A model generated the notes under the pieces. That model made no database searches, was not told the origin of the DNA, and saw only the letters and a list, made by a program, of their open reading frames with translations. 64,000 nt of DNA from Candidatus Saccharimonadia bacterium (GTDB lineage: Bacteria > Patescibacteriota > Saccharimonadia > UBA4664): the NCBI GenBank assembly GCA_035544015.1, contig DATKIP010000076.1:128299-192298 (forward strand). The letters run 5' to 3'. How positions within the stretch are numbered: the stretch's first letter is position 1; every line of letters begins with the position of its first letter. Of the stretch, positions 4,821 to 61,756 are shown one piece after another. Position numbers and translations under genes: made by a program.

Positions 4821-5090
4821 ATGCAAAACCCATTGGCGCATGTCCCCGAAGAGAAGGCACAGAAGGAGCTGGTTCGGTTCCTGATCATAGGCTGGATAGC
4901 TGCGGTCGTAGCATTTGCTGTGTTCGGCTGGGCGTTCATTGTCGCGCTCGGTTGCGCCAGCCGATGCTTAATATTGAGTTGGCATACCGGTAATAAGGAA
5001 CGCTCAAAAGCTTGGCTTTATAAGCTGGCCAGCATATTGCTGCTAATCGTATCCATCTACGAGCTCTACCTGGTGGTCCACCAGCCCTAG
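4821..5090 (+). CDS. small 3-TM membrane protein (second immunity candidate)
   Basis: Strong SD (taaggagag) 8 nt upstream of the ATG. Hydrophobic helices. AT-richer than the flanking sequence. Confidence 0.5.
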   Translation: MQNPLAHVPEEKAQKELVRFLIIGWIAAVVAFAVFGWAFIVALGCASRCLILSWHTGNKERSKAWLYKLASILLLIVSIYELYLVVHQP

Positions 5091-13997: not shown

Positions 13998-14020
13998 CAT
14001 CATACCGAACATATTCCGAA
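13998..14020 (+). promoter_or_regulatory. conserved motif CATCATACCGAACATATTCCGAA (copy 2 of 3)
   Basis: Matches 22 of 23 positions of copy 1. Lies in the divergent intergenic region between 13958 (minus) and the GT2 gene. Confidence 0.35.
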
Positions 14021-14166
14021 GATTCAAGCCCAGCGGTAAACTACCGGATTCCTATCATACCGCCCACACTGCATCCCGCATCAAGTCTTGAAATTCTCCC
14101 TCCCAACCCATCTCCCTACATTCCCGACCACCCCGCCCTGTAATTTTGCACAAAAGACCTCGCAGT

Positions 14167-15995: not shown

Positions 15996-15996
15996 T

Positions 15997-17178: not shown

Positions 17179-20100
17179 ATAAGAAGAATTTATACCTGGT
17201 CGGCTTCATCATACTTCTGAACATCCTGGTTTATCGAGTGTGGTTTCTTGGGTTCGGGATAATGACTCATGGGGATTGGAGCTATGTCTCTCGCGTAAGC
17301 GCCGATACGCTGAGAATCCATTATTTTTCACTTTGGCTGTCAGACTATTCGTTTGGGCGCATTCTCGTCGACGTTGGGCAGGCCCCCACCTATGCATTTT
17401 ATGGGTTCTTGTCAGCTGCCCTGCAGATCGATTTTGCCCTGGCCGAAAGGCTCGTGCACCTCTGGCCAGCAGTGCTCCTCACTCCGCTCGGGGCCTTTTT
17501 TCTGGTATGGAAGATTTTTAAAAACCGAATCGCAGCCATACTGGGCGCCATCATATATTCCTGTAATACCTATTTTTTAATCCTACTGACCGGGCATCTA
17601 ACGCTCGCGGGCGCATATGCGCTTGCCCCGTGGGTGCTGCTCGCATATTTAGAGTTCTTAGAGAAGGAGAGCCTTCGTTATGGCATCTGGGCTGGCCTCC
17701 TGCTCTCGGCGTCGTCGGCCTATGAACCCCGAGCCGCATACATAATTGCCTGGATCCTCGTCTTCGCCGCCGCCGGCCAGGGCGTCGCAAAAATCATTGA
17801 TCATAAAAAAATTAACGAGATCATAAGCTATACGCTGCGCTCAATTATTCCGTTTGCCATATTCGGGCTGCTCAATTTCTTTTGGATTTTTGCTTTCACC
17901 AAAATCAACGGTGCAATTGGCGCGGATATTCTGTCGCGAGGGTTATTCGGAAATGCGTTTTACGACATTAATGAAGCCCTAACCCTGTTTCACCCCTTCT
18001 GGAACGGTGGACGACCAATACCATTTATTATTAACCACATCCCATTGTATTTCTGGCTGCTTCCCGTCGCCGCAACTCTCGGGATATTCTTGAATAAATC
18101 CAGAAGAACGATAATTTTCTTTGCCACACTTGGCATTCTGGGAATATTTCTAACAAAACAGGTAGACACTCCCTTTCCGCAGGCGTATCAATGGCTCTAC
18201 GCGCACTTTCCCGGCTTCGGTGCGTATAGAGAGGCGAGCAAATTCTACCTACTAATCGCGTTATCGTATACGGTTCTCATCCCCGGCGCATATATTGCGT
18301 TGAAGAAAATCGGCCATAAGTACCTCTCCCTAGGCTTTGCGGCAGCTCTCGCGAGCATTATGGTAGTAAACTTAGCTCCCATCATAAGCGGTACGATCCA
18401 GACCACGTTCGCAAGTCGTACAATCCCAGAGTCTTATACGGCTCTCAACAAATTGTTGGACGAATCGTCTTTTTCCAGGACGCTGTGGGCCCCCAAGGAC
18501 TCGCGATGGGCGCTAGACTCCGACATGCACCCGAAAGTAGGGGCAATCGATATAGCGCAATCCTCGTGGGTCGATTTCATCAAACGCACCGTGGATGGTA
18601 GCTACCTGACCACCGAGGAGCAGGCCATGGAGGTTTTCCAGAATCCGTTTGCACCCGAGCTTCTAGCGGACGGAGTCATTAAATATGTCGTAGTCCCGTT
18701 AAGGGATACTAAAAATGACGATGATTTCTTCATTAATTACGGCGATATCCGAAGCAACTACACCGATTTGCTCGATAAAATGCCGTTCTTAAAACGGGTT
18801 AATACTGGCATCAACGACATCGCACTCTACCAAAACACGAATGTTAAGCCCTATGTCTCAACCTTCAGCAATCTATATTCAATCCCGGGCATGCCAGCAC
18901 TCCAGGGATCGCTCAACTTTGCGAAACAGGCCCTAGGAGAGAAAGATTTCAACTTTGTGAGTGGCGAAGAGAAGACTTATGCTCGAAAGATAACGGACTT
19001 ATTTGGCACTTTCGAAGACATGCAACCAACTCGGGACCGCGAGCTTGCTAGCAAGGAGGACCTGAGGGGGTCAACGATTTATCGGCCAGCCAGATTTAGC
19101 GAGTACGAATATCGCGTGGCGGGGAATGAACTACAGATTTTGTCGCGAGATCTCAGAAAAAACCTAGGTGCAACCAGGGGAGTAGCCAACGCGGCTAGTT
19201 TTTCAATTATAAAACGGATAAATGTTGCACGAGAGCCCGACATATATCTGGATATTGACGGAAAAATTACAAAACTTAACGCGAGCGACAACCAGGAGCA
19301 TTATCTTGGGTCTAACGTTGAAAAAATTGGAGTCTACTCTGCCACGACAGGCAATAACGTCATCAACGGATCGTTCGAAAGCGGTTTATGGCAGGACAAA
19401 GTACAAGATTGCAATAATTACGACGGTAGTCCCTCGATATCCGTGAGACAAAGTTCGGTGGCTTCCGATGGAAAATACTCTCTAAATATGACGGCACAGA
19501 AACACATGGCCTGTACCGCCTCAGCGCCCTTACCAATTCGAGCAGATTTTTATCTCACAGCCATGGATTACAAAATACACAATGGTACCTACGCTGCGTA
19601 CCAGATCAGCAACTCGGAAACAAAGGAAGTCTTGGGAAAATATAACCTGCGAGCGCCCGATGATGCGTGGCGCACGTATGCCACGATTCAGGCTCGTCCC
19701 TCTGGGGCTACCAATCTCGGCGTTACTCTCATGGCAAGACCATCTGAGCAGCAGAGTAAGCTCGCGGAAACAAATTACGACAATGTAAAAATCGTTGGCC
19801 TAAAAAAGCTCGATTCTCTGGATTTTGGACAGAACCAATTCGAGCCCTTCCAGAGTGGCCCGACGGCGTATCGAGATCAGGCCTATACGTACGAGAACAT
19901 CGTTCCGAATGGTTCGTTCGAAAATGGGCTTTGGGAAAAAAATGTTGGCGATTGCGGCGCGTATGACGACAAGCCCAAGATAGGGATGAATATAAGTACA
20001 AAAGCGAGCGATGGTAGGCGATCCCTCGAGCTCCATGCTTCGCGGCACATTGCCTGCACCAGCGCCAATAATATCCCCATTGAGCCAAATGGGACTTACC

Positions 20101-20837
20101 AAATTACTTTTGACTACACCACGAACGGCACGCAGAGTGCCGGATATTCCGTAATTTTAGACGATCCTCAGAAGACGAAAATCACAGAGCGTATATCCAT
20201 CGCCTCAACGATATGGAAGAAATACCAGTCGACGTTTGTAATTCCTCCCGGCGCGAAAATTGCGAACATTACCTTATACGCATATTCAGAAGATGATGGC
20301 GCAGAGTCAGTCGTACGTTATGACGACCTTCGAGTGATAAAGACCCCTGATATCACCGGCAAATATTTCGCCCTGACAAACGCGAACATTACAGTGAAGC
20401 CACCAAAAGACATTAGCTTTAAGGCTCCAAGTCAAACAGCGAGAACGATCTCAATACGGGCTGCCACCACCCCGTTCTACCTCGCAATGGCCGAGGCTTA
20501 CCATCCGGATTGGCGTCTCGAAATCAACAACGGCAAGGTGAAGGGGCTGGGATCGTGGCTGCCGTGGGCCAAGCCCGATGCAGTCGCTGCGGGGGATCAC
20601 TTCAAGCTCAATGATTTCGAAAACGGCTGGTACGTGGATGTCGATAAACTCTGCGGACAGCAGAAGCTCTGCACTCAAAATGCCGATGGTTCATACGATC
20701 TCGAGATGGTAGCCGAATTTACGCCGCAGCGATGGTTCTACATCGGGCTCATCGTGAGCGGCGGCACCCTCGTGGCGTGCATCGGATTCCTGGCTTGGGA
20801 CTGGCGCCGACGACGACATGGGCAGGATAGAGGCTAG
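17175..20837 (+). CDS. large polytopic membrane protein (GT-C/YfhO-like N-terminal domain) with two tandem CBM-like/galactose-binding-like modules and a C-terminal TM anchor
   Basis: About 14 TM helices in the first 420 aa. Duplicated module NGSFE(S/N)GLW..DC..YD..P.I.....AS DG(K/R)(Y/R)SL......H(M/I)ACT(A/S). Final TM helix FYIGLIVSGGTLVACIGFLAW. ATGA overlap with the upstream gene. Confidence 0.7.
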   Translation: MNKKNLYLVGFIILLNILVYRVWFLGFGIMTHGDWSYVSRVSADTLRIHYFSLWLSDYSFGRILVDVGQAPTYAFYGFLSAALQIDFALAERLVHLWPAVLLTPLGAFFLVWKIFKNRIAAILGAIIYSCNTYFLILLTGHLTLAGAYALAPWVLLAYLEFLEKESLRYGIWAGLLLSASSAYEPRAAYIIAWILVFAAAGQGVAKIIDHKKINEIISYTLRSIIPFAIFGLLNFFWIFAFTKINGAIGADILSRGLFGNAFYDINEALTLFHPFWNGGRPIPFIINHIPLYFWLLPVAATLGIFLNKSRRTIIFFATLGILGIFLTKQVDTPFPQAYQWLYAHFPGFGAYREASKFYLLIALSYTVLIPGAYIALKKIGHKYLSLGFAAALASIMVVNLAPIISGTIQTTFASRTIPESYTALNKLLDESSFSRTLWAPKDSRWALDSDMHPKVGAIDIAQSSWVDFIKRTVDGSYLTTEEQAMEVFQNPFAPELLADGVIKYVVVPLRDTKNDDDFFINYGDIRSNYTDLLDKMPFLKRVNTGINDIALYQNTNVKPYVSTFSNLYSIPGMPALQGSLNFAKQALGEKDFNFVSGEEKTYARKITDLFGTFEDMQPTRDRELASKEDLRGSTIYRPARFSEYEYRVAGNELQILSRDLRKNLGATRGVANAASFSIIKRINVAREPDIYLDIDGKITKLNASDNQEHYLGSNVEKIGVYSATTGNNVINGSFESGLWQDKVQDCNNYDGSPSISVRQSSVASDGKYSLNMTAQKHMACTASAPLPIRADFYLTAMDYKIHNGTYAAYQISNSETKEVLGKYNLRAPDDAWRTYATIQARPSGATNLGVTLMARPSEQQSKLAETNYDNVKIVGLKKLDSLDFGQNQFEPFQSGPTAYRDQAYTYENIVPNGSFENGLWEKNVGDCGAYDDKPKIGMNISTKASDGRRSLELHASRHIACTSANNIPIEPNGTYQITFDYTTNGTQSAGYSVILDDPQKTKITERISIASTIWKKYQSTFVIPPGAKIANITLYAYSEDDGAESVVRYDDLRVIKTPDITGKYFALTNANITVKPPKDISFKAPSQTARTISIRAATTPFYLAMAEAYHPDWRLEINNGKVKGLGSWLPWAKPDAVAAGDHFKLNDFENGWYVDVDKLCGQQKLCTQNADGSYDLEMVAEFTPQRWFYIGLIVSGGTLVACIGFLAWDWRRRRHGQDRG

Positions 20838-20843
20838 CTACCC

Positions 20844-20900
20844 TAATGTCTTCGGCCGCATTGCACACGGATGGCGAGCAAGATCGGCCGACATTAGCAT
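20844..20900 (+). terminator. hairpin (ctaatgtc..ggccg / cggccgacattag) followed by CATTTTTAC
   Basis: Inverted repeat with a T-run 7 nt after the membrane-protein stop. The loop is long at 26 nt, so the call is tentative. Confidence 0.35.
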
Positions 20901-20936
20901 TTTTACAGATGGCGCCGCGCCCCCGTACGGTGTAAA

Positions 20937-22244
20937 ATGCACTTCGTGAAATCTTCTGTTAATGTTGCTGTGATTGGAACCGGATATGTTGGCCTCACCA
21001 CGGGGGCGTGCTTGGCGAGCCTGGGGCACGATGTGGTGTGCGTGGATGTGGACGAGCGCAAAATTGAACAATTGCGGGCTGGGCACATGCCTATCATGGA
21101 GGCCGGCCTCGAGGAATTAGTGCAGGCCGGCGTGGCGGCTGGCCGGCTGCGGTTTGTGGTGGGCGCGGCCGGAGTGGTAGGGGACCGGCGCGTGGTGATG
21201 ATGTGTGTACCCACCCCGCAGGCCGCCGACGGCTCGGCCAACCTCAGCTACCTCATGGCGGCTACGGCCGAAATCAAGGATCACCTCGCCCCCGGCGCCG
21301 TGGTGGTCAACAAATCCACCGTGCCGGTGGGCACCGCCGAGCGGGTGGCGCAGGCACTGGGCCGCGCCGACGTGGCCGTGGCGTCCAATCCCGAATTTTT
21401 GCGCGAAGGCACTGCCGTGGCCGACTTTTTGGGCCCCGACCGCATCGTGATCGGCTCGGCCGACCCGGCAGCGGCTCGGGTGGTGGCTGGGCTGTATGGC
21501 GGCGTCGAGGCCCCCGTGATGCTCGTAGACGCGCGCACTGCCGAACTCATTAAGTATGCCTCAAATGCCTTTCTAGCGACCAAAATATCGTTTGCCAACT
21601 CCATCAGCGCCATCAGCGAGGAGCTCGGCGCCAACGCCCACGATGTGCTGGCCGGGGTGGGCGCCGATAGCCGCATTGGGCCGCAGTTTTTGCAGCCCGG
21701 ACCCGGCTGGGGCGGATCGTGTTTTCCCAAGGACACGCAGGCACTCATGGGGCTGGCGGCCTCGGTGGGGTACGAATTTGAACTGATGCAGGCCGTGGTG
21801 CGCGCCAACGCCGCCCAAACCGAGCGCATGGTAGAGCTGGTGCGGCGGCTCGCCGGCGGCCGGCTGGCCGGTGCCCGCGTGGCGGTGTGGGGCCTGAGCT
21901 TCAAGGCCGGCACCGACGACACCCGCGAGTCGCCGGCGCTGCGCGTCATCGCCGCGCTGCTGGCAGCCGGCGCCACCGTGGCCGCCTACGACCCCGCCGC
22001 CTCGGCGCCCGCCGGCGTGATCGCGGCTGCTAGCGCCCTCGAGGCGGCCGACGGCGCCGACGTGCTGGCGGTGCTCACCGAGTGGCCCGAGTTTGCCGCC
22101 GTGAGCCCCGCCGAGGTGGCGCAGCGCCTGGCGCACCGGCGCGTGCTCGACACCCGCCGGCTCCTCGACGCCGAGGCCTACACCGGTTTTGGCTTTACCA
22201 TGCACATTGTGGGCGTCGGCCACCTTGACCATAAGCGGTCTTAA
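20937..22244 (+). CDS. ugd: UDP-glucose 6-dehydrogenase (nucleotide-sugar dehydrogenase)
   Basis: N-terminal VAVIGTGYVGLTTGACLA Rossmann motif. Catalytic GGSCFPKDT motif. An alternative GTG start at 20946 is possible. Confidence 0.85.
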   Translation: MHFVKSSVNVAVIGTGYVGLTTGACLASLGHDVVCVDVDERKIEQLRAGHMPIMEAGLEELVQAGVAAGRLRFVVGAAGVVGDRRVVMMCVPTPQAADGSANLSYLMAATAEIKDHLAPGAVVVNKSTVPVGTAERVAQALGRADVAVASNPEFLREGTAVADFLGPDRIVIGSADPAAARVVAGLYGGVEAPVMLVDARTAELIKYASNAFLATKISFANSISAISEELGANAHDVLAGVGADSRIGPQFLQPGPGWGGSCFPKDTQALMGLAASVGYEFELMQAVVRANAAQTERMVELVRRLAGGRLAGARVAVWGLSFKAGTDDTRESPALRVIAALLAAGATVAAYDPAASAPAGVIAAASALEAADGADVLAVLTEWPEFAAVSPAEVAQRLAHRRVLDTRRLLDAEAYTGFGFTMHIVGVGHLDHKRS

Positions 22245-22247
22245 TGT
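22219..22247 (+). promoter_or_regulatory. sigma70-like promoter TTGACC-N17-CATAAT
   Basis: Read directly. Overlaps the ugd stop. About 55 nt upstream of the ATG at 22305. Confidence 0.35.
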
Positions 22248-22304
22248 CATAATGAAATAACGCAGCGTCCCGCTGCTTGTACATTCGTCAGATTGGAGAC
22301 GGCC

Positions 22305-22715
22305 ATGCCGTATAGTCTCGTACCCGAGTTGGTGCCCTCAGAGGCGCCGGTGCACGGCGCCTACGTCGGCGTGCTCAGGCCCAGTTCGGTGTGGGGCCAG
22401 CCCACGATCGAGGCATTGGAGTGGTTCCTGGGCCACGACTGCCACGCTGTGGTCGTCGACTTCGACGTCAACCCCAACAGCCTCAGGTACACCCTCCGGG
22501 GCGCGCAGGGGGAGCGATTGGCCCCCAGGGTTGTGCAGCTCCTGGCTAGCGGCGGCATCCGGTCGTCCACCATGGGCCGCTTTGAGGCCCTCCACCTGGC
22601 GGCCGTCGTGAATCTGGGGGTCCGGACTCTGCTCTGCGACCGCAAGCGCGAGGCCCCCGACGGCTTCCCGGTGCTGGTGAGCCCCATCGAGCCGATTACC
22701 GCCCGCCCCCGCTGA
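22305..22715 (+). CDS. hypothetical protein (first of four small genes each followed by a related hairpin)
   Basis: GGAG 7 nt upstream of the ATG at 22305. The ORF track shows a TTG start at 22293. Confidence 0.45.
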   Translation: MPYSLVPELVPSEAPVHGAYVGVLRPSSVWGQPTIEALEWFLGHDCHAVVVDFDVNPNSLRYTLRGAQGERLAPRVVQLLASGGIRSSTMGRFEALHLAAVVNLGVRTLLCDRKREAPDGFPVLVSPIEPITARPR

Positions 22716-22730
22716 CCCCTCCAACCAGAT

Positions 22731-22770
22731 CTGGCGAATGCCCCCGGCGCACATGTTGCGCCGGGGGCTA
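22731..22770 (+). terminator. GC hairpin cccccggcgca-catgt-tgcgccggggg followed by CTACGCTGTTTTG (REP-like family copy 1)
   Basis: Perfect 11-bp stem followed by a T-run. Confidence 0.5.
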
Positions 22771-22867
22771 CGCTGTTTTGCGGCTTGACAAAAGCCAAAA
22801 ATAGTACAATGCTGAGTCAGCAGCGGCCGTCTGGCCGCTCATTCCGCTAGATACCCGCTTGGAGGGG

Positions 22868-23368
22868 ATGCACATGTTTGCCAGCCCCAACGGCGAGCCC
22901 CGGTTCGCCTGCACGCTGGGAGAGACCGTTGCTCCATTTCTCCCCCGCACGCACCTCGACCAACCCCTACCCTCGTGCGGGCCAGATGACGACCCCGTGG
23001 TCATCACCGCCGCCTACGAGGTGATCGGCGAGCCCCTCACGCCGGCGCTCGCCAGCCGCGTCGCCGCCGTGCTCGAGGCCCACCCCGCCGCCTGCCTCGT
23101 CGCGGTGTCGGCCGAAGCATTCAGCTTCCAGTTGCCGGGCCCCGTGGGCGAGCCCCTGCCGGCGCCGGTCCCCGAGCTGTTGGGCTGGCCGGCCGGCACT
23201 GTGTTGGATTGGTCTCGCGCCGATTCGATGCTGGAATCGGTGAAAGCTGCCGTGGCGGCTGCGCTGCTCAACGACGACTTGCCCGACCACATCGTCAACC
23301 TCACCCTCCGCACGTACGCGGCACCCGGTAGCGACGCCGTCGCCGGCGTACAGAGGACGCGACGGTAG
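22868..23368 (+). CDS. hypothetical protein
   Basis: SD ggagggg upstream of the ATG at 22868. Pro/Ala-rich. ORF track start is 22859. Confidence 0.4.
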   Translation: MHMFASPNGEPRFACTLGETVAPFLPRTHLDQPLPSCGPDDDPVVITAAYEVIGEPLTPALASRVAAVLEAHPAACLVAVSAEAFSFQLPGPVGEPLPAPVPELLGWPAGTVLDWSRADSMLESVKAAVAAALLNDDLPDHIVNLTLRTYAAPGSDAVAGVQRTRR

Positions 23369-23430
23369 TTTGAGCTTCGCCACATCGCTCGGCCCTAACC
23401 CTGCCGACCCCTTGTCCCTCAATCTAGCGA

Positions 23431-23461
23431 TGATCCCCGGCGCGCATCGTGCGCCGGGGAT
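23431..23461 (+). repeat. GC hairpin gatccccggcgcgca-tcg-tgcgccggggatc (REP-like family copy 2)
   Basis: Near-perfect inverted repeat. Sequence is related to copies 1 and 3. Confidence 0.45.
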
Positions 23462-23575
23462 CCGTCATGTTGGGGGCAGCGCTCTGGACCCATTGACCGC
23501 CGGCATATTAAATGCCATAATGGTCGTCCGCAGCAACCGCTGTGCATCTGTCGGATCACAGAAGTGAGGGGTTCG

Positions 23576-23992
23576 TTGACGCCACTCGTCGGCCTTCACC
23601 AGATGTGGGGCGGAGACACCGGCCCGCACGGTGGCAGGTTCACGTTTTTCCTCGCCGACTCCACCGGGCAACAGCCCGCTCAACCGGTCGAGGCGTACAA
23701 AATTCCTGATCCCACCGCCGCCGCGTTAGGAGGGTATCTCAACGCTCTGGCCGGAGTTACCGCCAATCTCGGCCAGCTCACGGTCGTATATTTCCTGCGT
23801 CCGGAAGAGTGGCCCCCCGACCGCCGCCTGAGGCCCGAAACCGTCCGCAAGAAAATGCGTGACGCCATCACCGGCGTCGCCATTCGGGCATTCAACCACA
23901 ACCGGCTCGTTGAGCCCGCCAGGATCGGCCCAATCTACACGGCCGTCACCCCGCCGCCGTCCCCACCGCTCCCGCCCCCCGACCAAACCTGA
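23576..23992 (+). CDS. hypothetical protein (start uncertain: GTG 23564 or TTG 23576)
   Basis: ORF with GAGGGG upstream. C-terminal Pro-rich tail. Confidence 0.35.
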   Translation: MTPLVGLHQMWGGDTGPHGGRFTFFLADSTGQQPAQPVEAYKIPDPTAAALGGYLNALAGVTANLGQLTVVYFLRPEEWPPDRRLRPETVRKKMRDAITGVAIRAFNHNRLVEPARIGPIYTAVTPPPSPPLPPPDQT

Positions 23993-24001
23993 TCCGACCC
24001 G

Positions 24002-24028
24002 CCCCCGGCGCGCACGTTGCGCCGGGGG
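24002..24028 (+). repeat. GC hairpin cccccggcgcgca-cg-ttgcgccggggg (REP-like family copy 3)
   Basis: Follows the 23992 stop by 10 nt. Shares an ATCnrGCGA..CCCCGGCGC leader with copies 1 and 2. Confidence 0.45.
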
Positions 24029-24048
24029 TTGAGTCTGTTAAGCCAAAG

Positions 24049-24077
24049 TTGATTCCAGGAAGCATTAGTAGTATAAT
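24049..24077 (+). promoter_or_regulatory. sigma70-like promoter TTGATT-N17-TATAAT
   Basis: Read directly. About 60 nt upstream of the ATG at 24137, which has an AAGGAG SD. Confidence 0.45.
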
Positions 24078-24136
24078 AACCAAATGGCGAAACTACCTTC
24101 GCCGTCGTCAGAACGAGTGCAAAGGAGCACAGGCTC

Positions 24137-24484
24137 ATGACTACCCTGGAAAGAGGGACCGAACATGTCGAAACCGAGCCGGTCGAGATCGAGCTAGAGC
24201 CTTCCACCGACGGTGGGACACTCCGCGCTACTGTCGGATTGACGGTAGCCGACATCCACGCCGCAATCCTCGTGCAGCTCCATCGACAGCCTGCGGGCCT
24301 AGCGGCCGTAATGAGGCTCAACGTGGTGAATAACCGGACGTTCGAGTTCACCGTGCTCTACGGTGCTGATGTCGGAGCCGTCACGGGACGGCTCCTCCAG
24401 GCGGTCTCGACCGTCTTCGCGAGTGCCCTGGGCACCCCGGTCAGCCTTGGCCCTCGGGCTTACCGGCTGGCCCCGCGAGCCTGA
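24137..24484 (+). CDS. small protein, possibly Asp23/Gls24 (DUF322) family
   Basis: Promoter and AAGGAG SD upstream. Pattern FEFTVLYGADVGAVTGRLLQAVSTVFASALGTPV resembles the Asp23 core. Family assignment is tentative. Confidence 0.45.
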   Translation: MTTLERGTEHVETEPVEIELEPSTDGGTLRATVGLTVADIHAAILVQLHRQPAGLAAVMRLNVVNNRTFEFTVLYGADVGAVTGRLLQAVSTVFASALGTPVSLGPRAYRLAPRA

Positions 24485-24606
24485 GTCCACGCAACAAACC
24501 CACGCGTCCGCTCAATGTTCACGCCACAAGCACAACACCCTGACGGTAAGCCCCTGGTATCCGCAACCGCGGAGGCCGGGGGCTACGTCTTTGGTACACT
24601 GTCTGC

Positions 24607-26238
24607 ATGCATCATTCCTCTCAAATTATTCGCGCACGGCCGTGGCTAGTGTTTCTGGGACTCGCCCTGATCGTACTCGGTCCGCTGCTGCTGCCGGGGT
24701 ATGTGCTCACGGTTGATCTGAGCTGGGGTCCGCACATGGCTGCTTCCGATATGCTCAGCAACACCGCCCCGCTGTGGTGGCTCATTCGAGCGCTCAGTGT
24801 GGTGCTGCCGGGCTGGGTGGTCGAGAAGCTCGTGCTCGTGGGGTTGCCGGTGCTAACGGGGGTGGGCATGTGGCGATTGGCGGCGCGTCGGTCGCCGGGC
24901 TGGTCGGCCTACGCGGCCGGCCTCATGTACGTGGTCAACCCCTTCACCTACGAACGGCTCATGGCCGGCCAATGGCTCGTGCTGGCCGGCTACGCGTTGT
25001 TGCCCTGGCTGGTGGATGCCCTGCTGCGGCTCCTTGAGCGTCCCGGCGCGCGGCGGGCGCTGGTGCTCGGGGCCTGGGCGGTCGGCCTGGGCATGGCGTC
25101 GCTGCACCTGCTGCCCATGGCCGCGCTACTGCTCGCCGCCGTCATCGCCGCCAGCGCCTGGGGCCGAGGGTGGCGGCCGCACACCGGACGCTGGCTGGCA
25201 CTGGCCACGGCCCTGTGGCTGGCGGCCGCCAGCGCCTGGCTCGTGCCCTGGCTGCTGCACCGTTCGGCGGCAGCCCGCGCCGTGGCCGGCTTCGACGCCG
25301 GGCAGTTCGAGGCCTTCCGCACCACCGCCGGCCCCCTCGGCGCGCCGGCCGCCGTGGCCGCGCTCCAGGGCTTTTGGGGCGAGCGCACCGGCCTGGTGGT
25401 GCCCGGCTCGAGCACGGGCGCATGGTTTTGGCTTGCTGCAGCCACAATACTCATCTTAGCCATCATCGGCCTCGTGCTAGCAGTGCGCCGGCGCGATCGG
25501 CTCGGGCTGGCACTGGCCGTCGCGGCTAGCCTGGCCTGGCTGCTCGCCATTGGTGTCGCTTGGCCGCCCACCGCGGCGCTCACGCACCTTCTCGTCGATC
25601 ACCTGCCGTTTTATCGCGGCTACCGTGAGCCCCAAAAGTGGGCGGCGCTCATCGCGCTGGCCTATGCCTACTTGGCGTCCGGTGCGCTGGCCGCTGCCGG
25701 CACTCGGCTCCAGCCCTTCTGGCGGCGCGGCCTCCTGGCAGCTACGGCCGTGCTGGTGTTTGCCTGGGCGCCGCTGCTGCCGTGGGGAGCGGCCGGCCAG
25801 CTCACCGCCACGGCCTATCCCGCCGGCTGGTCCGATCTCAATGCGCGGCTGAACGCTCTGCCGGCAGCCCCGCCCGGACATCCCGACACACTTATGTTGC
25901 CATGGCATCAATATATCTACCTCGATTTCGCCCATCGTCCCGTTGCCAACCCCTCAGCGCAGTTTTTTGACCGTCCAGGTATTGTCTCGAACGACCCCGA
26001 GCTGCCCGGTGTACCTCCCGATTCAGATTTAGGCATTGTCAATAAAATACAAAATGATGTCATAGATCGCCGATTTTTTGAGCATAATGCCGGTTCTAGA
26101 TTACGGGCCCTCGGGGTACACTACGTTGTGCTCATAAAGGTGTCGGACTGGCAAAACTACGGTTGGCTCCGCGCTCAGAGCGATCTTACCTTAGTCGCGG
26201 AGACCCCCGATTGGCAGCTATACCAGGCCATCCCATGA
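24607..26238 (+). CDS. polytopic membrane protein, GT-C/YfhO-like (paralogous to the N-terminal domain of the 17175 protein)
   Basis: 543 aa with more than 12 TM helices. Shares the motif pattern (D/V)(W/L)SWGPH...L(W/S)... with the 17175..20837 N-terminus. Confidence 0.6.
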   Translation: MHHSSQIIRARPWLVFLGLALIVLGPLLLPGYVLTVDLSWGPHMAASDMLSNTAPLWWLIRALSVVLPGWVVEKLVLVGLPVLTGVGMWRLAARRSPGWSAYAAGLMYVVNPFTYERLMAGQWLVLAGYALLPWLVDALLRLLERPGARRALVLGAWAVGLGMASLHLLPMAALLLAAVIAASAWGRGWRPHTGRWLALATALWLAAASAWLVPWLLHRSAAARAVAGFDAGQFEAFRTTAGPLGAPAAVAALQGFWGERTGLVVPGSSTGAWFWLAAATILILAIIGLVLAVRRRDRLGLALAVAASLAWLLAIGVAWPPTAALTHLLVDHLPFYRGYREPQKWAALIALAYAYLASGALAAAGTRLQPFWRRGLLAATAVLVFAWAPLLPWGAAGQLTATAYPAGWSDLNARLNALPAAPPGHPDTLMLPWHQYIYLDFAHRPVANPSAQFFDRPGIVSNDPELPGVPPDSDLGIVNKIQNDVIDRRFFEHNAGSRLRALGVHYVVLIKVSDWQNYGWLRAQSDLTLVAETPDWQLYQAIP

Positions 26239-35178: not shown

Positions 35179-37512
35179 ATGGTGCATCCATTACTCACCG
35201 AACTCAACGACCAGCAGCGCGTCGCCGCCCAGACCACCGAGGGGCCGGTGCTCATCCTGGCCGGCGCCGGCTCAGGCAAAACCAAAGCCCTCACCCACCG
35301 CGTCGCCTACCTCGTGGCCGAAAAGCACGAGTCGCCGCAAAGCATTCTGGCCGTCACCTTCACCAACAAAGCCGCCGGCGAAATGCGCGGCCGCGTGCTC
35401 ACCCTGCTCGGCCAAAACCCCCAAAACCGCGGCTATTTCCCCTTCATCGGCACCTTCCACTCCATCTGCCTGCGCCTGCTGCGCCGCGAAGCTGTCGAAA
35501 TCGGCCTGGCCTCCAACTTCCTGGTATTCGACTCCGCCGATTCGCAATCCGCCATCAAGCGGGCCATGCGCAACCTCGGCATCGACGACAAGCAGCTCAC
35601 CCCCGGCCTCATCCACGGCCTCATTTCGTCGGCCAAAAACGAACTCATCAGCCCGGCGCAATACACCAAACTCGCCAGCGGCCGGGCCCAAGCCGCCGCC
35701 GCGCAGGTTTACCCCGCCTACCAGGCACTCCTCAAAGAAGCCGGCGCCCTCGACTTCGACGATCTCATTTACCGCACGGTCAGCATGTTCAAAGACTACC
35801 CCCCCATCCTCGCCAAATATCAGCAGCAGTTCAAATACATCCTGGTCGACGAATACCAAGACACCAACCACGCGCAGTATCAAATCACCAAACTCCTGGC
35901 CAGCGCCCACCATAATATCTGCGTTATCGGCGACGACGACCAGGCAATTTACTCCTGGCGCGGCGCCAACTTCCAAAATATTCTTGATTTCGAAAAAGAT
36001 TACCCCACCGCCACCGTCATTAAGCTCGAGCAAAATTATCGCTCCACCAAGCGCATTCTCGACGCCGCCCACGCCGTAATCGCCAAAAACCGCGTCCGCT
36101 CAGACAAAAAACTCTGGACCGATCGCGGCGACGGCGTCGGCATCGGCATCGTCAACGTCTACAACGAAATCCAAGAAGCCGAAACCATCGTGGCGCGCGT
36201 CCAAGACCTGCGCGCCTCCGAGAAGCGCGAGCTCTCCGATTTTGCTGTGCTCTACCGCACCAACGCCCAGTCGCGCTCGCTCGAAGAAGGCTTTTTGCGC
36301 GCCGGCCTACCCTACAAAATCGTCGGCGGCACGCGCTTTTACGAGCGCAAAGAAATCAAAGACGCTATCGCCTACCTGCGCTACATTTACCAGCCCGACG
36401 ACTCCGTGAGCTTCGGCCGCATCATCAACCTGCCGGCGCGAGGATTGGGCGACGTGTCGTTGCAACGTCTGGAAGCGTGGAGAAGGAGACAATTTGTAAG
36501 GCAGGCGGGTAGTGCGGAGGGAGAATCACCCGAGCACGGAGGCGCCGGTCCTGATATCGGTCCCGCCGAAGAGACGGACCGCGTTCGCCGACGCGAGGGT
36601 GATTCTCCCGCAGCAACAACCCTGAGCCTCCTCGAAGCCTGCCGCCGCGCCGACCAAGTCCCCGGCCTCCAAGCCAAAGCCGTGAATTCGCTCCAGGCCT
36701 TTGCGCTCCTCATCGACGGTCTGCGCGACGAAGCCCAAAAGCTGGCCGTAGGACCGCTACTAAACTTGGTACTAAAGCGATCAGGCTACCTCACCTTCCT
36801 CGACGACAACTCCATCCAGGCCGCCGACCGCATCGAAAACGTCAAAGAATTACTCAGTGTAGCCGAAACCTGGGGCGAACTCTCGCTCGAAGGCTTTCTC
36901 GAAGAAATCGCCCTCATCGCCGACATCGACAATTATTCCCAGGACACCAACGCCGTCACCCTCATGACGCTCCATGCCGCCAAAGGTCTCGAATTTCCCG
37001 TAGTATTCATTCCCGGCGCCGAAGAGGGGATATTCCCGCACTCGAGGGCTTTATTCGACGCCGATCAAATGGAGGAAGAGCGCCGCTTATGCTACGTCGG
37101 CATGACGCGCGCCCGCGAGCGCTTGTATCTGCTCTATGCCAACTCGCGTCTGCTCTACGGAGCCACCAACCACAATCCGCCGTCGCGCTTTTTGCTCGAA
37201 ATCCCGGCCGAGCTCCAAGACAGCGGCTCCGAGTGGGCCGGCGCCGCGCTCACCGCGGCCGCGGCCGGGCATGCCACGGGCGCCGGCAGCTGGAGCGCGC
37301 AGCCCATGTACGCCACCACCGAGGCCCAGGCCGCGACGCATCGCGAGGCCATGCTCGGCCTCGACCTCGCCCCCGGCGACCGCATCCGCCACGCCAAATT
37401 TGGCGACGGCATCGTAGCGGCCGTTTCCGGCGACGAAGTCACCGCCGCCTTCGAAGGCATCGGCACCAAGCGGCTATCGCTGAGCTTCGCCCCCATCGAG
37501 AAAATCAGCTAG
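35179..37512 (+). CDS. pcrA: ATP-dependent DNA helicase PcrA/UvrD
   Basis: Walker A GAGSGKT. UvrD motifs throughout. 777 aa. Confidence 0.9.
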   Translation: MVHPLLTELNDQQRVAAQTTEGPVLILAGAGSGKTKALTHRVAYLVAEKHESPQSILAVTFTNKAAGEMRGRVLTLLGQNPQNRGYFPFIGTFHSICLRLLRREAVEIGLASNFLVFDSADSQSAIKRAMRNLGIDDKQLTPGLIHGLISSAKNELISPAQYTKLASGRAQAAAAQVYPAYQALLKEAGALDFDDLIYRTVSMFKDYPPILAKYQQQFKYILVDEYQDTNHAQYQITKLLASAHHNICVIGDDDQAIYSWRGANFQNILDFEKDYPTATVIKLEQNYRSTKRILDAAHAVIAKNRVRSDKKLWTDRGDGVGIGIVNVYNEIQEAETIVARVQDLRASEKRELSDFAVLYRTNAQSRSLEEGFLRAGLPYKIVGGTRFYERKEIKDAIAYLRYIYQPDDSVSFGRIINLPARGLGDVSLQRLEAWRRRQFVRQAGSAEGESPEHGGAGPDIGPAEETDRVRRREGDSPAATTLSLLEACRRADQVPGLQAKAVNSLQAFALLIDGLRDEAQKLAVGPLLNLVLKRSGYLTFLDDNSIQAADRIENVKELLSVAETWGELSLEGFLEEIALIADIDNYSQDTNAVTLMTLHAAKGLEFPVVFIPGAEEGIFPHSRALFDADQMEEERRLCYVGMTRARERLYLLYANSRLLYGATNHNPPSRFLLEIPAELQDSGSEWAGAALTAAAAGHATGAGSWSAQPMYATTEAQAATHREAMLGLDLAPGDRIRHAKFGDGIVAAVSGDEVTAAFEGIGTKRLSLSFAPIEKIS

Positions 37513-39283: not shown

Positions 39284-40006
39284 ATGAAACCCACCCAACC
39301 CTACCAGCGCGTTCTCCTCAAACTCTCCGGCGAGCAATTTGCCGGCGACCGCGAGTATGGCGTCGACCCCGTATTTGTGAACCGCCTCGCCAAAGAGCTC
39401 GCCGAAACCATCGAAGCCACGCACGTGCAGCTCGCCATCATCGTCGGCGGCGGCAACATTATGCGCGGCGCCAGCGTCGCCAAATCCGGCATTGAGCGCG
39501 CCACCGGCGACTACATGGGCATGCTCGCTACGCTCATCAACGGCATGGCGCTCGTCGACATCCTCGAGGCCAACGGCGTACCGGCCCGCCTCACCACCCG
39601 CCTCCGCGCCGACCAAGTCGCCGAGCCCTTCGTGCGCCGCCGCGCCCTTCGCCATCTGGAAAAGGGGAGAGTGGTAGTTGTGGCCGGCGGCACGGGCAAC
39701 CCGTACGTCACCACCGACACCGCCGCCGTCACTACCGCTCTGGAGCTCGAGGGCGACCTTGTGCTCAAAGCCACCAAAGTCGATGGCGTCTACGACAAAG
39801 ACCCCAGCAAGCACGCCGACGCCCAGAAGCACACCGAGCTCAGCTTCGGCAAAGTCCTCACCGACCCGCACATCAACGTTATGGACAACGCCGCCATCTC
39901 GCTCGCCATGGACAACTCGCTGCCTATCGTCGTCTTCGACCTCCTCACGCACGGCAACATCCGCCGCGTCATCGAAGGCCAAAATATCGGCACCAAGGTT
40001 AGCTAA
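39284..40006 (+). CDS. pyrH: UMP kinase
   Basis: LLKLSGE and VGGGNIMRG motifs. 240 aa. Confidence 0.9.
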   Translation: MKPTQPYQRVLLKLSGEQFAGDREYGVDPVFVNRLAKELAETIEATHVQLAIIVGGGNIMRGASVAKSGIERATGDYMGMLATLINGMALVDILEANGVPARLTTRLRADQVAEPFVRRRALRHLEKGRVVVVAGGTGNPYVTTDTAAVTTALELEGDLVLKATKVDGVYDKDPSKHADAQKHTELSFGKVLTDPHINVMDNAAISLAMDNSLPIVVFDLLTHGNIRRVIEGQNIGTKVS

Positions 40007-40016
40007 TAAGCTCCGA

Positions 40017-40107
40017 AACGGGCCAATTTACGTCACCACGAACTCGTTCTCATTGCTAATTATGGGTCCGTGGTCTTGTCTGGCGTGGTGACGTAAATTG
40101 GCCCGTT
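40017..40107. repeat. palindromic element L: perfect 24-bp inverted repeat (aacgggccaatttacgtcaccacg / cgtggtgacgtaaattggcccgtt) around a 43-nt loop
   Basis: Read directly. The loop sequence is homologous, in opposite orientation, to that of element R at 40568-40659. Confidence 0.6.
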
Positions 40108-40132
40108 CCTGCGCCCTTCGTGCCTAGCATCC

Positions 40133-40190
40133 CCTAAAAACACAGCGAGCCTGCCCGAGGTGCAGCGCATGGCCGCACCTCGGGCAGGCG
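40133..40190 (-). terminator. rho-independent terminator for the minus-strand small gene (hairpin cctgcccgaggtgc...gcacctcgggcagg + TGTGTTTTTAG)
   Basis: 14-bp perfect stem. A U-tract follows on the minus strand. Confidence 0.5.
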
Positions 40191-40213
40191 TGACCCCGTC
40201 TCCCGCCGCGCCG

Positions 40214-40426
40214 CTAGCGGTGGGCGGACGGAGTGGGGGTCGGACGCGCCGGCGCGTGCGTAACCGCCGGGCGCACCGCCGGTGAGCTGGTGTCCCCGCC
40301 GTGCTGTAGCGCGAGGGCGATCCCAATGACAAGCAGGGCGAGGAAGGCAATGAGCCTGAGCCATCCTCTCCCCGAACCGTCATTCGTGCGCCTGTTGCCA
40401 CCCCCGGGAAAGAAGCTGTAATTCAC
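40214..40426 (-). CDS. 70-aa single-TM small protein
   Basis: GTG start preceded by GAGAGGAG with 6-nt spacing. A terminator lies downstream. TM helix LRLIAFLALLVIGIALAL. Confidence 0.45.
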   Translation of the reverse strand: MNYSFFPGGGNRRTNDGSGRGWLRLIAFLALLVIGIALALQHGGDTSSPAVRPAVTHAPARPTPTPSAHR

Positions 40427-40567
40427 GAACTACTCCTCTCATTCCGCTTCTGCAGCCTGCGAGTACGCTAGCCGGACCATCCGGCCGAGCAAGCGCCACT
40501 ATACACCTCCCCAGAGCCTTTTGACAACGCTCACCTAGCGCCCAGATAGTGCGCCGGCTAGAGCGGA

Positions 40568-40659
40568 GAAGAACAAACAATTACTTCACCACGCCAGACA
40601 ACACTACGCACTGCCAAGCAAAGAGGAGGAGTTCGTGCTGAAGTAATTGTTTGTTCTTC
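40568..40659. repeat. palindromic element R: perfect 21-bp inverted repeat (gaagaacaaacaattacttca / tgaagtaattgtttgttcttc) around a 50-nt loop
   Basis: Read directly. The reverse complement of its loop shares cacgaactc..ctc and ttgtctggcgtggtga with the loop of element L. Confidence 0.6.
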
Positions 40660-40767
40660 GCAGCCCCATTTGACTCCCACCAGATATCGCGGTACCATAA
40701 GCATGTTCTTAAAACCAAAAAACGAGAAATAAAAGTCCCTTCGTAGTAACGAAAGAGACGTTTTATT

Positions 40768-41979
40768 TTGCGTCACGGTATTAGCCACATTATCGCCACC
40801 TACCAGAAGCTCCGGGCCCAACCGCGTAACCTCCTGGCGATCGGCCTCCTCCTCGCGATTGTTAGCCTCGGACCTTCATCGGGCCGGCTGCCGGTAACTC
40901 CGGCAGCTGCGGCCGATTCGCAGGCCCTCATCTCGCTGTATGCCGACGGCCAGCAGCGCCTGTTTAGCGCCGACGACAAAACCGTCGGCGACGTATTGCG
41001 CCGTGCCAACCTGAAGCTTGGACCCCACGACCTCGTGGAGCCGTCCGCCGCCTCGCCGGTGCCGCATGGCCAATTCAACATCAATGTCTATCGCGCTCGC
41101 CCCGTCCTCGTCGAAGACGGCCTCCAGACCTACCGGCTCAAAAGCGCCTACCAAAGCCCCCGCCTCCTAGCTCTGGCCGCCGGGCTGGTGGTGTACCCCG
41201 AAGATCGCTTCCACACCGAAATAATCACCGATTTTGTCGATGATGGCTCGGTCGGCGAAAAAGTCACCGTCACCCGGGCCAAGCCGGTGAACGTTAAAGT
41301 CGACGGCCAGCAGCGGATTATTCGCACCCAAGCCGGCACTGCCGTCGATGCGCTCAAAGGCGCCGGCGTGGCACTGGGGGTCAACGACACCGTCTCGGTC
41401 AATCTGGCCGCCCCGGTGACCTCCGGCATGACGGTGAGTATCACGCGGGTCACTGAGGCCGTCGTCAACCTCACCCAAACCCTACCCAAGCCCGTCAAAG
41501 TCATCACCGATCCCACCGTACTCAAGGGCCAAACCAGCATCAAAGATCCCGGCGCCGACGGCCAAAAAACCGTCACCTACCGCATTCATTACCACGATGG
41601 CGTCGAAACCGTTCGCGAGGCCATCCAAACCGTTAGCCAGACCGCTCCCGTCGCCAAAGTGGTCGTGCAGGGCAGCAAGGTCTTCTTCGCCGGCTCGGTC
41701 GAATATTGGCGCTCTCAAGCTGAAGCCGCCGCCACCGCCAACGGCATCGATCCCAATATGCTGCTCCGGATCATGAACTGCGAATCGCGCGGCAACGCTA
41801 CATCGGTGAGCGCCTTCACTATCGGTGGTGAGCACCCCACCGGCCTCTTCCAATTTTTGCCCTCCACCTGGAGAGCAGCCGGCGGCACCAACGACAACAT
41901 CTTCGACGGCTCGCTTCAAATTCAGATCGCCGCCAAAAAAATGGCTCGCGAAGGCACCAAAGCCTGGCAGTGTAAGTAA
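40768..41979 (+). CDS. DUF348 (x3)-G5-transglycosylase-like secreted protein (Rpf/YabE-type cell-wall hydrolase); TTG start
   Basis: N-terminal TM helix. Repeated ubiquitin-like DUF348 units (V.V.DG....). G5-like region. C-terminal NCESRGN...GLFQFLPSTW resembles the Rpf transglycosylase-like domain. Confidence 0.7.
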   Translation: MRHGISHIIATYQKLRAQPRNLLAIGLLLAIVSLGPSSGRLPVTPAAAADSQALISLYADGQQRLFSADDKTVGDVLRRANLKLGPHDLVEPSAASPVPHGQFNINVYRARPVLVEDGLQTYRLKSAYQSPRLLALAAGLVVYPEDRFHTEIITDFVDDGSVGEKVTVTRAKPVNVKVDGQQRIIRTQAGTAVDALKGAGVALGVNDTVSVNLAAPVTSGMTVSITRVTEAVVNLTQTLPKPVKVITDPTVLKGQTSIKDPGADGQKTVTYRIHYHDGVETVREAIQTVSQTAPVAKVVVQGSKVFFAGSVEYWRSQAEAAATANGIDPNMLLRIMNCESRGNATSVSAFTIGGEHPTGLFQFLPSTWRAAGGTNDNIFDGSLQIQIAAKKMAREGTKAWQCK

Positions 41980-46364: not shown

Positions 46365-47101
46365 TGAAGTTTCTCGGCCATGTCCTCGCGTTATTGCTCG
46401 CTACCACGATTGTCGTGGCGGTTTGGGGTTTTGTGCTCGGCCGCACGCTGGGGAGCGCTAGCTATCTCGAGCATCAGGCCAGCCAGGCCCAGCTCTACGA
46501 GCGGCTCGGCACCGCAGTCCCCGAAGCTGCGATTGATCCCGCCGATCTCGCCAACCGTGTCAACGCCGTTTTGCCAGGATTCATCGACCACCTCACCAAA
46601 GGCACACCGGCCCCCACCTTCGCGCTGCCCGGCGGCGACTCCCAGACCCTCACCCTCGGCGGCGCCGACGAACAAGTCACCGACGCCTTTGCCGTCCTGC
46701 GCCCGGCCGCCATGAGCGCGCCCTTCGTCGCCCTGGCGCTCGTATTGCTAATCATCGGCGTGATGCGCGCCCGGCGCTTGCTAGTGCTCAGCCGGGCCGG
46801 CCTCCAGGCCGCCATCAGTCTCGCCGCCTCCGCCGCGCTGCTGTGGTTTGCGCCGAGCCTCATTCTATCGCTCCTCGACAAACCCGACACCGCCGCCATC
46901 CGGCCCGTCATCGCGCCGTTCCTCGAATCGGTGCTGCACGGCATAGCCACCCAGCTGGCCGCTGCCGCCCTCGCCCTGCTCATTATCACCATCGCCCTGC
47001 GGCTCGTCCACAGCGCCGGACTCCTCAAAAACCGCTTCATCAAGCCAAAACCGCCCGCCAAGCCTCAAATCCCACCCGCCCCCGGATCGGTCCGAAACTA
47101 A
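46361..47101 (+). CDS. membrane protein, hypothetical
   Basis: ATGA overlap with rsmA. Several TM helices. Confidence 0.55.
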   Translation: MMKFLGHVLALLLATTIVVAVWGFVLGRTLGSASYLEHQASQAQLYERLGTAVPEAAIDPADLANRVNAVLPGFIDHLTKGTPAPTFALPGGDSQTLTLGGADEQVTDAFAVLRPAAMSAPFVALALVLLIIGVMRARRLLVLSRAGLQAAISLAASAALLWFAPSLILSLLDKPDTAAIRPVIAPFLESVLHGIATQLAAAALALLIITIALRLVHSAGLLKNRFIKPKPPAKPQIPPAPGSVRN

Positions 47102-61542: not shown

Positions 61543-61756
61543 CGCCGAGCGGCCGGTCCCGCGGGAGCGAGGGCGGATTCCGCAAAGAGCGAAGGCAAAA
61601 ACGTTTGGCCCCGCGCGCGCCAGACCACACCACAGATAGAAATTAGCAATAAGGCCGAGTTCGCAAGCAAGCCAAACGTTTTCGCCGCAGCCTACCGGCA
61701 CGCCCCGTTTGGCGCCACCGACCATAAGCGCTACAATCATGGGGGATACATCAGCC

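Follow-up and report, generated by a model that had tools for sequence, protein, structure and literature searches.

Inverted hairpin elements beside pyrH belong to a dispersed family of covarying hairpins in Candidatus Saccharimonadia

Background

Saccharimonadia and other bacteria of the Candidate Phyla Radiation (CPR) have genomes of about 1 Mb, in which repeats and mobile DNA are usually said to be scarce. Here we have studied a 64-kb stretch, which we call the window, of a 320-kb metagenomic contig from a metagenome-assembled genome (MAG) of Candidatus Saccharimonadia (Patescibacteria). Directly after the gene pyrH there are two palindromic elements in opposite orientation, L and R, with a small gene of 70 aa between them; the whole set covers about 640 bp. 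A first-pass annotation considered that the two palindromes form terminal inverted structures around the small gene. The question raised by this locus is whether L and R are the ends of one unit, or whether each of them is an element by itself.

We have found that L and R belong to a dispersed family of covarying hairpins, which has been gained or lost between related genomes, resides also in the coding linker of a gene and persists at orthologous sites. With moderate confidence we consider that L and R are independent copies of a new family of structured hairpin repeats, which occurs in one clade of Candidatus Saccharimonadia and is similar to repetitive extragenic palindromes (REP), miniature inverted-repeat transposable elements (MITE) and Rickettsia palindromic elements (RPE). 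They would not form a composite element. In literature searches we have not found any element of this kind described for Saccharibacteria or Patescibacteria; it is apparently the first one noted in Saccharimonadia.

The elements L and R

The spacer between pyrH and the next gene has 761 bp in the window. On its left side we find pyrH (39284–40006, plus strand), which has the Pfam domain AA_kinase; an identical protein from a Candidatus Saccharimonadia MAG is annotated as UMP kinase. On the right side there is an RpfB-like gene with domains DUF348-G5-SLT (40768–41979, plus strand), which is normally found to the right of pyrH in this clade. It had been pointed out that frr is absent after pyrH. 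This is true, but it is the same in all eight related genomes sampled; since in the normal synteny of the clade the RpfB-like gene comes after pyrH, the missing frr is uninformative.

Element L occupies positions 40007–40114 on the minus strand. Its hairpin (40017–40107) begins 10 nt past the pyrH stop codon and has a perfect stem of 24 bp, with arms in 40017–40040 and 40084–40107 and 43 nt between them. Element R is found in positions 40563–40667 of the plus strand; its hairpin (40566–40661) stops 10 nt short of the −35 box of the rpf-like gene. In this case the stem has 26 bp with one mismatch (arms 40568–40593 and 40634–40659), of which a portion of 21 bp is perfect and encloses 50 nt. The perfect stems of 24 and 21 bp, with their loops, had already been given in the first-pass annotation, which we confirm. 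Both folds are very stable, with z values from −6.2 to −8.7: 0 of 200 dinucleotide shuffles were as stable.

When L is reverse-complemented, its similarity with R is clearly apparent, as had also been noted: the column identity is 82% and they share an exact 16-mer, TCACCACGCCAGACAA. The similarity is not uniform along the elements. The apical part is 80–90% identical and the basal flanks about 70%. The middle of the stem (8–9 bp) is wholly different in both arms, yet it is perfectly paired in each element. An independent Logan assembly (SRR8863102) is 100% identical over 39601–41400, in the same orientation, so that the arrangement of L and R is not an assembly artefact.

Copies of the family

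Two covariance models have been used to search for copies: R1, built from two orthologous copies, and R2, a second model which was partly trained on the copy found in the gene pcrA. Four full copies are present in the window, about one per 16 kb, and L and R are only two of them. L has a score of 45 bits with R1 and 78.3 bits with R2, R has 43.8 and 81.5 bits. The third copy, C3 (61589–61694, plus strand), lies between a 99-aa gene coding for a transmembrane protein rich in Pro and Thr (PT-rich) and ftsA. It was detected by nhmmer with a profile of the shared core (E 3.4e-5) and has 48.5 bits with R1 and 79.4 bits with R2; it has a perfect stem of 12 bp, AAAACGTTTGGC/GCCAAACGTTTT, with a fold z of −3.0. 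R1 recovered every copy in full length with scores of 29–140 bits, and when its filters were turned off it gave the fourth copy of the window, in positions 36512–36620. With R2 the four copies have 73–81 bits, while everything else in the window has at most 25 bits. The sense strand scores 78–81 bits and the antisense strand 18–25 bits. The R2 model makes the family directly searchable. We have also noted by eye that C3 ends about 25 nt short of a promoter-like site, TTGGCG-17-TACAAT. A short and weak covariance-model match of 74 nt (46418–46491; 18.5 bits, E 0.02) may be either a degenerate copy or a mere hairpin.

Outside the window we searched 185,579 species genomes with a degenerate pattern of the core, CGCCMGAC N12-28 AGCAANNAGNNNGAGTTCG, and found only 12 matches. 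Two thirds of them (8/12) are long hairpins, all of them in three MAGs of Saccharimonadia: UBA6017, La2_metabat2.113 (La2 in what follows) and SRP200132_co1_243. The other four are chance matches in other phyla which do not form hairpins. The orthologous loci fetched with ComEC added three more copies (L107a, L107b and L108). We use locus labels where they are required: L004 and L101 correspond to UBA6017, L104 corresponds to La2 and the L107 copies are also from La2. Altogether there are about ten copies in three or four other Candidatus Saccharimonadia MAGs, and three of these MAGs carry at least three or four copies each. The family has a total of about 15 copies, several of which are orthologues of one another.

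Other searches set limits to the family. No copy was found in 21–30 kb from each of two other relatives, nor in shorter loci of three more, and viral contigs gave no match. A strict pattern, CACCACGCCAGACAAN{20,50}AGTTCGTG, had no match in genome, viral or metagenome collections, because it is too specific for the subtype of L and R. A search of metagenomes with pyrH only gave distant pyrH genes with 50–63% identity. Both elements were also compared with Rfam 15: no family reached its gathering threshold and we only found sub-threshold matches with hairpins similar to microRNA precursors; in the whole window only a tRNA found elsewhere is above threshold.

The neighbours of the copies are unrelated housekeeping genes (pyrH, rpf, ftsA, ftsK, rodZ-like, secD, comEC, rpsP, rnpA/dnaA and yebC/ruvC) with no common functional theme. 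The orientation of the copies with respect to neighbouring genes is mixed, and three of them are antisense to both neighbours. There is no conserved promoter upstream of the copies; only R has one.

Structure of the element and covariation

The element has a length of about 95–115 nt, typically 105 nt. Its outermost feature is a GC clamp of 2 bp (G-C and C-G, in 11–12 of 12 copies) around a purine-rich internal loop. The basal flanks have recurrent strings, GCGnAG on the 5' side and CGCAGC or GCAAG on the 3' side; the GCGnAG and CGCAGC strings look like a part of the element or a site preference, not like a duplication. Next comes stem P1, with 12–19 bp. Its base is often RAAC/GTTY, whereas its middle part of 6–10 bp differs in every copy but stays paired. 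A junction of 0–6 nt leads to the inner helix P2, and the RAAC box is found at a fixed distance, 10–14 nt before P2. This helix has 7 bp with three Watson-Crick solutions (CACCACG/CGTGGTG, GCTCACG/CGTGAGC and GCGAGCG/CGCTCGC) and a fourth form with tandem G.A, G[CT]GAGCG/CGTGA[GA]C. The apical loop has 40–47 nt and contains the only strongly conserved sequence of the element, with the invariant positions CGCC.GAC...AGCAA..AG...GAGTTCG. About 25 positions of this loop are invariant over four or five genomes, whose intergenic DNA is mostly unalignable.

Covariation was counted in 14 copies with a model-fitted alignment. We find 88.5% of standard pairs in the cells that should be paired, against 63% in shuffles and 25–44% when the partners are slid; 19 of the 23 pairs have changed on both sides, and the covariation score is 0.535, against 0.153 in shuffles. 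As the alignment is fitted to the structure, these values are somewhat inflated. A control by arm swapping, which is independent of this alignment, agrees with them: the arms of the same copy pair with a mean of −22 kcal/mol, while arms taken from different copies give only −6.5 kcal/mol. In fact the P1 arms of different copies are no more alike than shuffled sequences (0.50 vs 0.46).

Some further features were considered. Five copies have in the 5' arm the sequence AACTC, complementary to the invariant GAGTT of the loop, so that an alternative pairing of these two sequences is possible. An excess of G.U over A.C pairs, 26:5 in a first count, appeared to place the structure at the RNA level, but with a fair antisense control it became 26 vs 19, which is not significant. 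We do not use it as evidence, and it does not separate the RNA from the DNA level. A small peptide starting from the GAGG...GTG of the loop was rejected: the GTG is absent in three copies and the frames, from 3 to over 18 codons, have no shared sequence. No likeness to K-turn, T-loop, hammerhead or twister motifs holds, either by eye or with Rfam.

A copy inside pcrA

The fourth copy of the window (36512–36620, plus strand) is different from the others by its location: it lies in frame inside the pcrA/uvrD open reading frame (ORF), which covers 35179–37512. Its scores are 26.6 bits (E 2.7e-5) with R1 and 73.5 bits with R2, a model partly trained on this copy. It has a perfect stem of 13 bp, GGGAGAATCACCC/GGGTGATTCTCCC, with a fold z of −5.3, and it encodes the peptide ...ESPEHGGAGPDIGPAEETDRVRRREGDSPAATT... 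The PcrA proteins of three relatives (L089, L090 and L091) do not have this stretch. They show a gap of 32 aa, with SAEGLKP-MSLLEACR against SAEG-ESPEH...SPAATT-LSLLEACR in the window. Both arms of the hairpin are missing from L089 pcrA, which indicates that the whole hairpin is the inserted unit at this site.

A copy of the same subtype is present at the same PcrA linker in UBA6017 (L004, 378–489; 29.6 bits), within about 30 nt and also in frame, but on the opposite strand. The two copies therefore encode unrelated peptides. In relative L006 the same linker has an unrelated insert of about 30 aa.

Gain, loss and persistence among relatives

The pyrH/rpf spacer is variable in this clade. In three relatives (L006, L088 and L089) it has only 122–134 bp and no element; L088 is the closest relative, with 90% identity in PyrH, and the approximately 650 bp formed by L, the segment and R are wholly absent from it. 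In L002 the spacer has about 300 bp with no core, and a native hairpin, CCGGCCGAAATTTTTGGCCGG, is found directly after pyrH, at the place of L. In L092, L093 and L094 the spacer contains two unrelated genes. They are on the minus strand (3724–6300 in L092) and code for proteins of unknown function with 180 aa and 470–486 aa; the larger one has a PT linker and an N-terminus that looks dockerin-like by eye. The presence of this insert at the same spot indicates that the pyrH/rpf spacer is a hotspot for variable content. UBA6017 (L101) and La2 (L104) have a lone copy of the R type, at the place of R and in its orientation, together with an upstream half-copy. The first-pass annotation had set uniqueness in the genome, lack of target duplications and a position conserved in all relatives against a mobile element. 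What we have found is mixed: the elements are not unique in the genome, there is no target duplication, and the position is conserved in some relatives and empty in others.

Half-copies of the 5' core (GAAGTGAGCGCC[CA]GA[CT]) are found 51–63 nt upstream of three full copies: L099 at about 5290–5330, L101 at about 5030–5060 and L104 at about 4555–4580. In L096 (7600–7640) a recombinational deletion of 48 nt is found between a half-copy and the full copy, and the 5' arm is destroyed.

Other copies have persisted. The copy at the comEC locus is common to UBA6017, La2 and a third genome, in which the ComEC proteins are 85–87% identical; there are two or three point changes in P1, and P2 has wobble or compensatory changes. 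When L103 is compared with L107a, in P2 a G.U pair becomes G-C and a C-G pair becomes U.G, while two G.U wobbles arise in P1. The copy at the ftsK/rodZ locus is common to UBA6017 and La2, with one to three point changes in P1. The orthologous pair L101 and L104 is different: the cores are near-identical and the stems are unalignable, whereas other orthologous pairs keep their stems. Such a long persistence at orthologous sites indicates that the structure and the apical module are under constraint.

On the right, the variable spacer is delimited by the rpf promoter, TTGACT-17-TACCAT, with a leader of about 70 nt (40670–40767, plus strand), which contains a small hairpin, CCCTTCGTAGTAACGAAAGAG. 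Promoter and leader are kept in every relative (L002, L004, L006, L088, L089, L092 and L104), while the rest of the spacer is not; this is a candidate cis-regulatory leader. In L107 (5423–5457), immediately behind a La2 copy, the string GCAAGCAAAAGC is found twice, 23 nt apart, and there are similar strings after copies in L103, L105 and L106; this motif is not enriched in the window.

The segment between L and R

The 70-aa gene (40214–40426, minus strand) is called as a gene in the public record. It has a basic N-terminal stretch, one transmembrane helix and a tail rich in Pro, Thr and Ala, without any Pfam domain. Among 5.8 billion proteins its sole match is itself, thus it is an ORFan. It has a weak resemblance with the 99-aa gene that precedes C3 (E 0.001 in a single comparison), and in style it is like the other small proteins of the window with a transmembrane helix and a Pro/Thr-rich region. 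The first-pass annotation attributed to it a strong Shine-Dalgarno sequence and a terminator of its own. The former is present, GAGAGGAG, followed by a GTG start. As for the terminator, there is a hairpin of 18 bp with a loop of 5 nt (40149–40189, minus strand), located 24 nt past the stop codon; it is probably the terminator of the small ORF, but the run of five T on the minus strand is found only 8 nt further on, so it does not pass the terminator rule of the scan.

The start of this gene coincides with what is probably a relic of the family. In positions 40419–40453 (minus strand) there is the 3' half of an element core, AATGAGAGGAGTAGTTCGTGAATTAC, which matches the AGAGGAGGAGTTCGTG of R in 15 of 16 positions and gives a weak nhmmer match. 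This match, which was noticed post hoc, is only locally significant. The probable relic contains the Shine-Dalgarno sequence and the GTG start of the small ORF. Further to the right two promoter-like sites overlap in divergent orientation (40498–40550), each with 10 of the 12 positions matched: TTGTCA-18-TATAGT on the minus strand, directed towards the small ORF, and TTGACA-18-GATAGT on the plus strand, which faces R and is placed so that the predicted transcript would start at R. In the same region CCAGATAGTGCGC (40541–40553) is a 13-mer identical to the spacer of the rpf promoter of L002, and TTGACA is found 15 nt before it; the rpf promoter seems to have been partially duplicated just left of R.

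No direct repeat flanks the 640-bp segment, and its interior (40108–40565) has no match in the window, the fetched loci, the genes of the L092 insert or phages. The spacer holds element copies, a half-copy relic, a pair of promoter-like sites and a lineage-specific ORFan; we therefore read it as accreted DNA. In the simplest reading it is a spacer in which element copies, relics and promoter fragments have accumulated and a lineage-specific small gene has emerged, and not the cargo of a composite element.

The GC content of the window is not uniform: it is 46–52% in positions 14000–21000 and then 63–71% in 21000–26000, against about 60% elsewhere. This contrast may correspond to foreign or specialised DNA.

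Repeat family, functional RNA or mobile core

The reading which we prefer, a dispersed family of hairpin repeats, has to be weighed against several points. There is no target-site duplication at L, R, C3 or the pcrA copy, and owing to the divergence between the window and L089 the boundaries of the pcrA insertion are not defined to the nucleotide. No transposase or other mobilising gene has been identified, in a window that was not screened for one. Terminal inverted repeats are not conserved between copies, so that a classical MITE mechanism is not supported. The covariation was counted on an alignment fitted to the structure, in a family of only about 15 copies, several of them mutual orthologues, and the G.U asymmetry lost its significance. 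Finally, the conservation of the apical loop across genomes with pyrH proteins about 86% identical fits equally well a functional RNA of the host.

The last point leads to the most serious alternative: a family of functional structured RNAs, either cis-acting elements in intergenic regions and 3' untranslated regions or small RNAs, inherited vertically and not selfish. The apical and basal internal loops would bind a protein or a ligand, and P1 would be a spacer helix with fixed length and free sequence. The structured-RNA candidate of the first-pass annotation keeps its place because the stems covary strongly, although there is no Rfam match. All three helices covary, the apical loop is invariant at about 25 nt, the orthologous copies L103 and L107a differ by wobble and compensatory changes, the sense strand scores far above the antisense strand, the RAAC box keeps its distance from P2, and the promoter-like site facing R would start a transcript exactly there. 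However the other copies do not have a conserved promoter at a fixed distance, the orientation with respect to genes is mixed, three copies are antisense to both neighbours and the flanking genes have no functional theme. Two copies are found within a coding region on opposite strands, half-copies and relics exist, and several relatives with the same synteny have no element. Nor does the G.U asymmetry help. We consider that a purely functional RNA is possible but clearly less probable than a repeat family.

It could also be thought that only the core, P2 with the apical loop, is mobile. It would insert into the loop of existing palindromes, such as bidirectional terminators, or seed a fold-back or template-switch copying of its flank; the outer stem would then be local sequence. 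The sharp drop of conservation from core to mid-stem, even in the L/R pair with 80–90% identity, agrees with this idea, as do the near-identical cores and unalignable stems of L101 and L104 and the native hairpin of L002 at the place of L. Many stems also lie within 10–50 nt of a stop codon, with an A-tract in one of the arms and a T-tract in the opposite one. By eye the arms gave the impression of homology with the empty-site spacers or the native pyrH terminator, but when they were aligned there was no significant similarity (p 0.2–0.98), and we have discarded it. Moreover homology reaches below the variable part, in the GC clamp, the GCGnAG/CGCAGC flanks and the RAAC box; the empty site of L089 pcrA has neither arm, and the stems are longer than those of ordinary terminators and extend past the A/T tracts. 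An independently mobile core is thus improbable.

The initial view, in which the 70-aa gene was brought by a single composite, MITE-bounded or invertible cassette with L and R at its two ends, is very hard to maintain. In its favour, the two elements are inverted and each other's closest relatives (82%), L088 lacks the whole region, and the small gene is equipped with a promoter-like site, a Shine-Dalgarno sequence and a hairpin of its own. Against it, no direct repeat is found on the flanks, and in UBA6017 and La2 an R-type copy is found alone at this position. The gene is an ORFan, the interior is unmatched in phages, the rest of the window and the alternative insert of L092, the orientation is the same in two independent assemblies, and the other copies of the window (61589–61694 and 36512–36620) are solitary.

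Comparison with known repeats

REPs are short intergenic palindromes found in either orientation, which are thought to act as RNA hairpins on transcript ends and stability. They have 20–40 nt, a stem sequence conserved between copies and hundreds of copies, and they are linked to the RAYT transposase. The present family shares with REP/BIME and REPIN the character of short intergenic palindromes with multiple copies in either orientation. It differs from them because the middle of the stem is specific for each copy, the conserved part is a loop of about 45 nt and there is only about one copy per 16 kb.

Intrinsic terminators have a short GC-rich stem and a loop of 3–8 nt, followed by a U-tract. 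Our elements are not of this kind: the loops have 40–50 nt, there is no T-run after L, R, L101, L104 or L099, and the terminator scan reports neither L nor R.

Bacterial MITEs can be co-transcribed with the genes beside them, and sometimes they provide regulatory signals. This is similar to what is found here, where a probable relic provides a ribosome-binding site and a start codon. Like the bacterial MITEs (Correia, ERIC, RUP, BOX, Chunjie), the elements are small, non-coding, dispersed, form hairpins and are present or absent between strains. The proposal of a MITE-like miniature element stands in this respect. However, the definition of a MITE requires target-site duplications and terminal inverted repeats that are common to the copies (PMC10969869). 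Neither has been seen here; only the RAAC/GTTY box and the GC clamp recur.

RPEs are found in intergenic DNA and also within housekeeping genes; in the latter they keep the reading frame and add translated peptide segments to the protein (PMC10969869). They are similar to our family as palindromic repeats of about 100–150 bp in a small reduced genome, with intergenic and in-frame genic copies, in our case in pcrA. Saccharimonadia belong to another phylum. The likeness is one of behaviour and does not show family membership. There are other differences: RPE families are described as encoding a conserved peptide each, while here the two intragenic copies are on opposite strands and give unrelated peptides, and only one intragenic site has been seen so far in the Saccharimonadia family.

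Covarying RNA motifs of the Rfam type also have conserved loops, paired helices with variable sequence and a fixed helix length between conserved modules. They differ from our family, which has no match in Rfam 15; its several copies per genome, with mixed orientation and with truncated and ORF-internal copies, are atypical of riboswitches and single-copy RNA genes. Integron attC sites and the ends of IS200-IS605 have conserved boxes at the base of an imperfect hairpin, one orientation for all copies and an integrase or TnpA beside them. In comparison with these, conservation here is apical and not basal, orientation is mixed and the neighbours are housekeeping genes; no recombinase was seen beside any copy in the genomes, which were sampled only locally. 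By analogy RPEs and repeats of the REP/MITE type appear to be the closest in behaviour, but membership in any of these groups is not supported.

A possible history of the family

If the elements are repeats, the family would have spread duplicatively into intergenic spacers, in either orientation, and into at least one permissive coding linker, that of pcrA. The copies would then have been retained for a long time at orthologous sites under constraint. The pyrH/rpf spacer would be a hotspot of turnover, where two full copies, a half-copy relic, a promoter-like pair and an ORFan have come together, and the ribosome-binding site and start codon of the small ORF would derive from the relic. By analogy with REP, ERIC and Correia elements, the copies may be transcribed with their neighbours to give stable RNA hairpins, which could act as punctuation of transcript ends, processing or stability, or as a platform for protein binding. 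Alternatively, the elements might be recognised as DNA hairpins.

The perfection of the stem in each copy might be kept by selection for pairing or by a templated correction from one arm to the other. The pattern of the stems in L vs R and in L101 vs L104 seems to call for a coordinated replacement of both arms. Possible routes for such a replacement are arm-to-arm templated correction, apical conversion between copies or re-insertion.

A more ambitious proposal, which we put forward tentatively as less likely than not but with a real chance of being right, is that we are dealing with a kind of hairpin element unrecognised so far in CPR bacteria, with apical module and base conserved, the middle of the stem rewritten in both arms, and the ability to settle in intergenic DNA and in frame in essential genes. 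If it were true, these features together would imply either that bacterial repeats can be copied or inserted by an undescribed hairpin-templated mechanism, or that a new structured RNA exists in multiple copies and has its own dedicated protein.

Significance

In the genome studied here the family appears to reshape an intergenic hotspot beside a conserved cell-wall gene, it has probably provided a new small ORF with its ribosome-binding site, and it sits in frame in the PcrA helicase. This is also a warning for annotation: palindromes that seem unique, small ORFans and odd protein insertions in these genomes may have one origin. The family is a ready candidate for studies of RNA structure and RNA-protein interaction. 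Should it be confirmed, it would also be useful as a marker for following the dynamics of the genome in these uncultured lineages.

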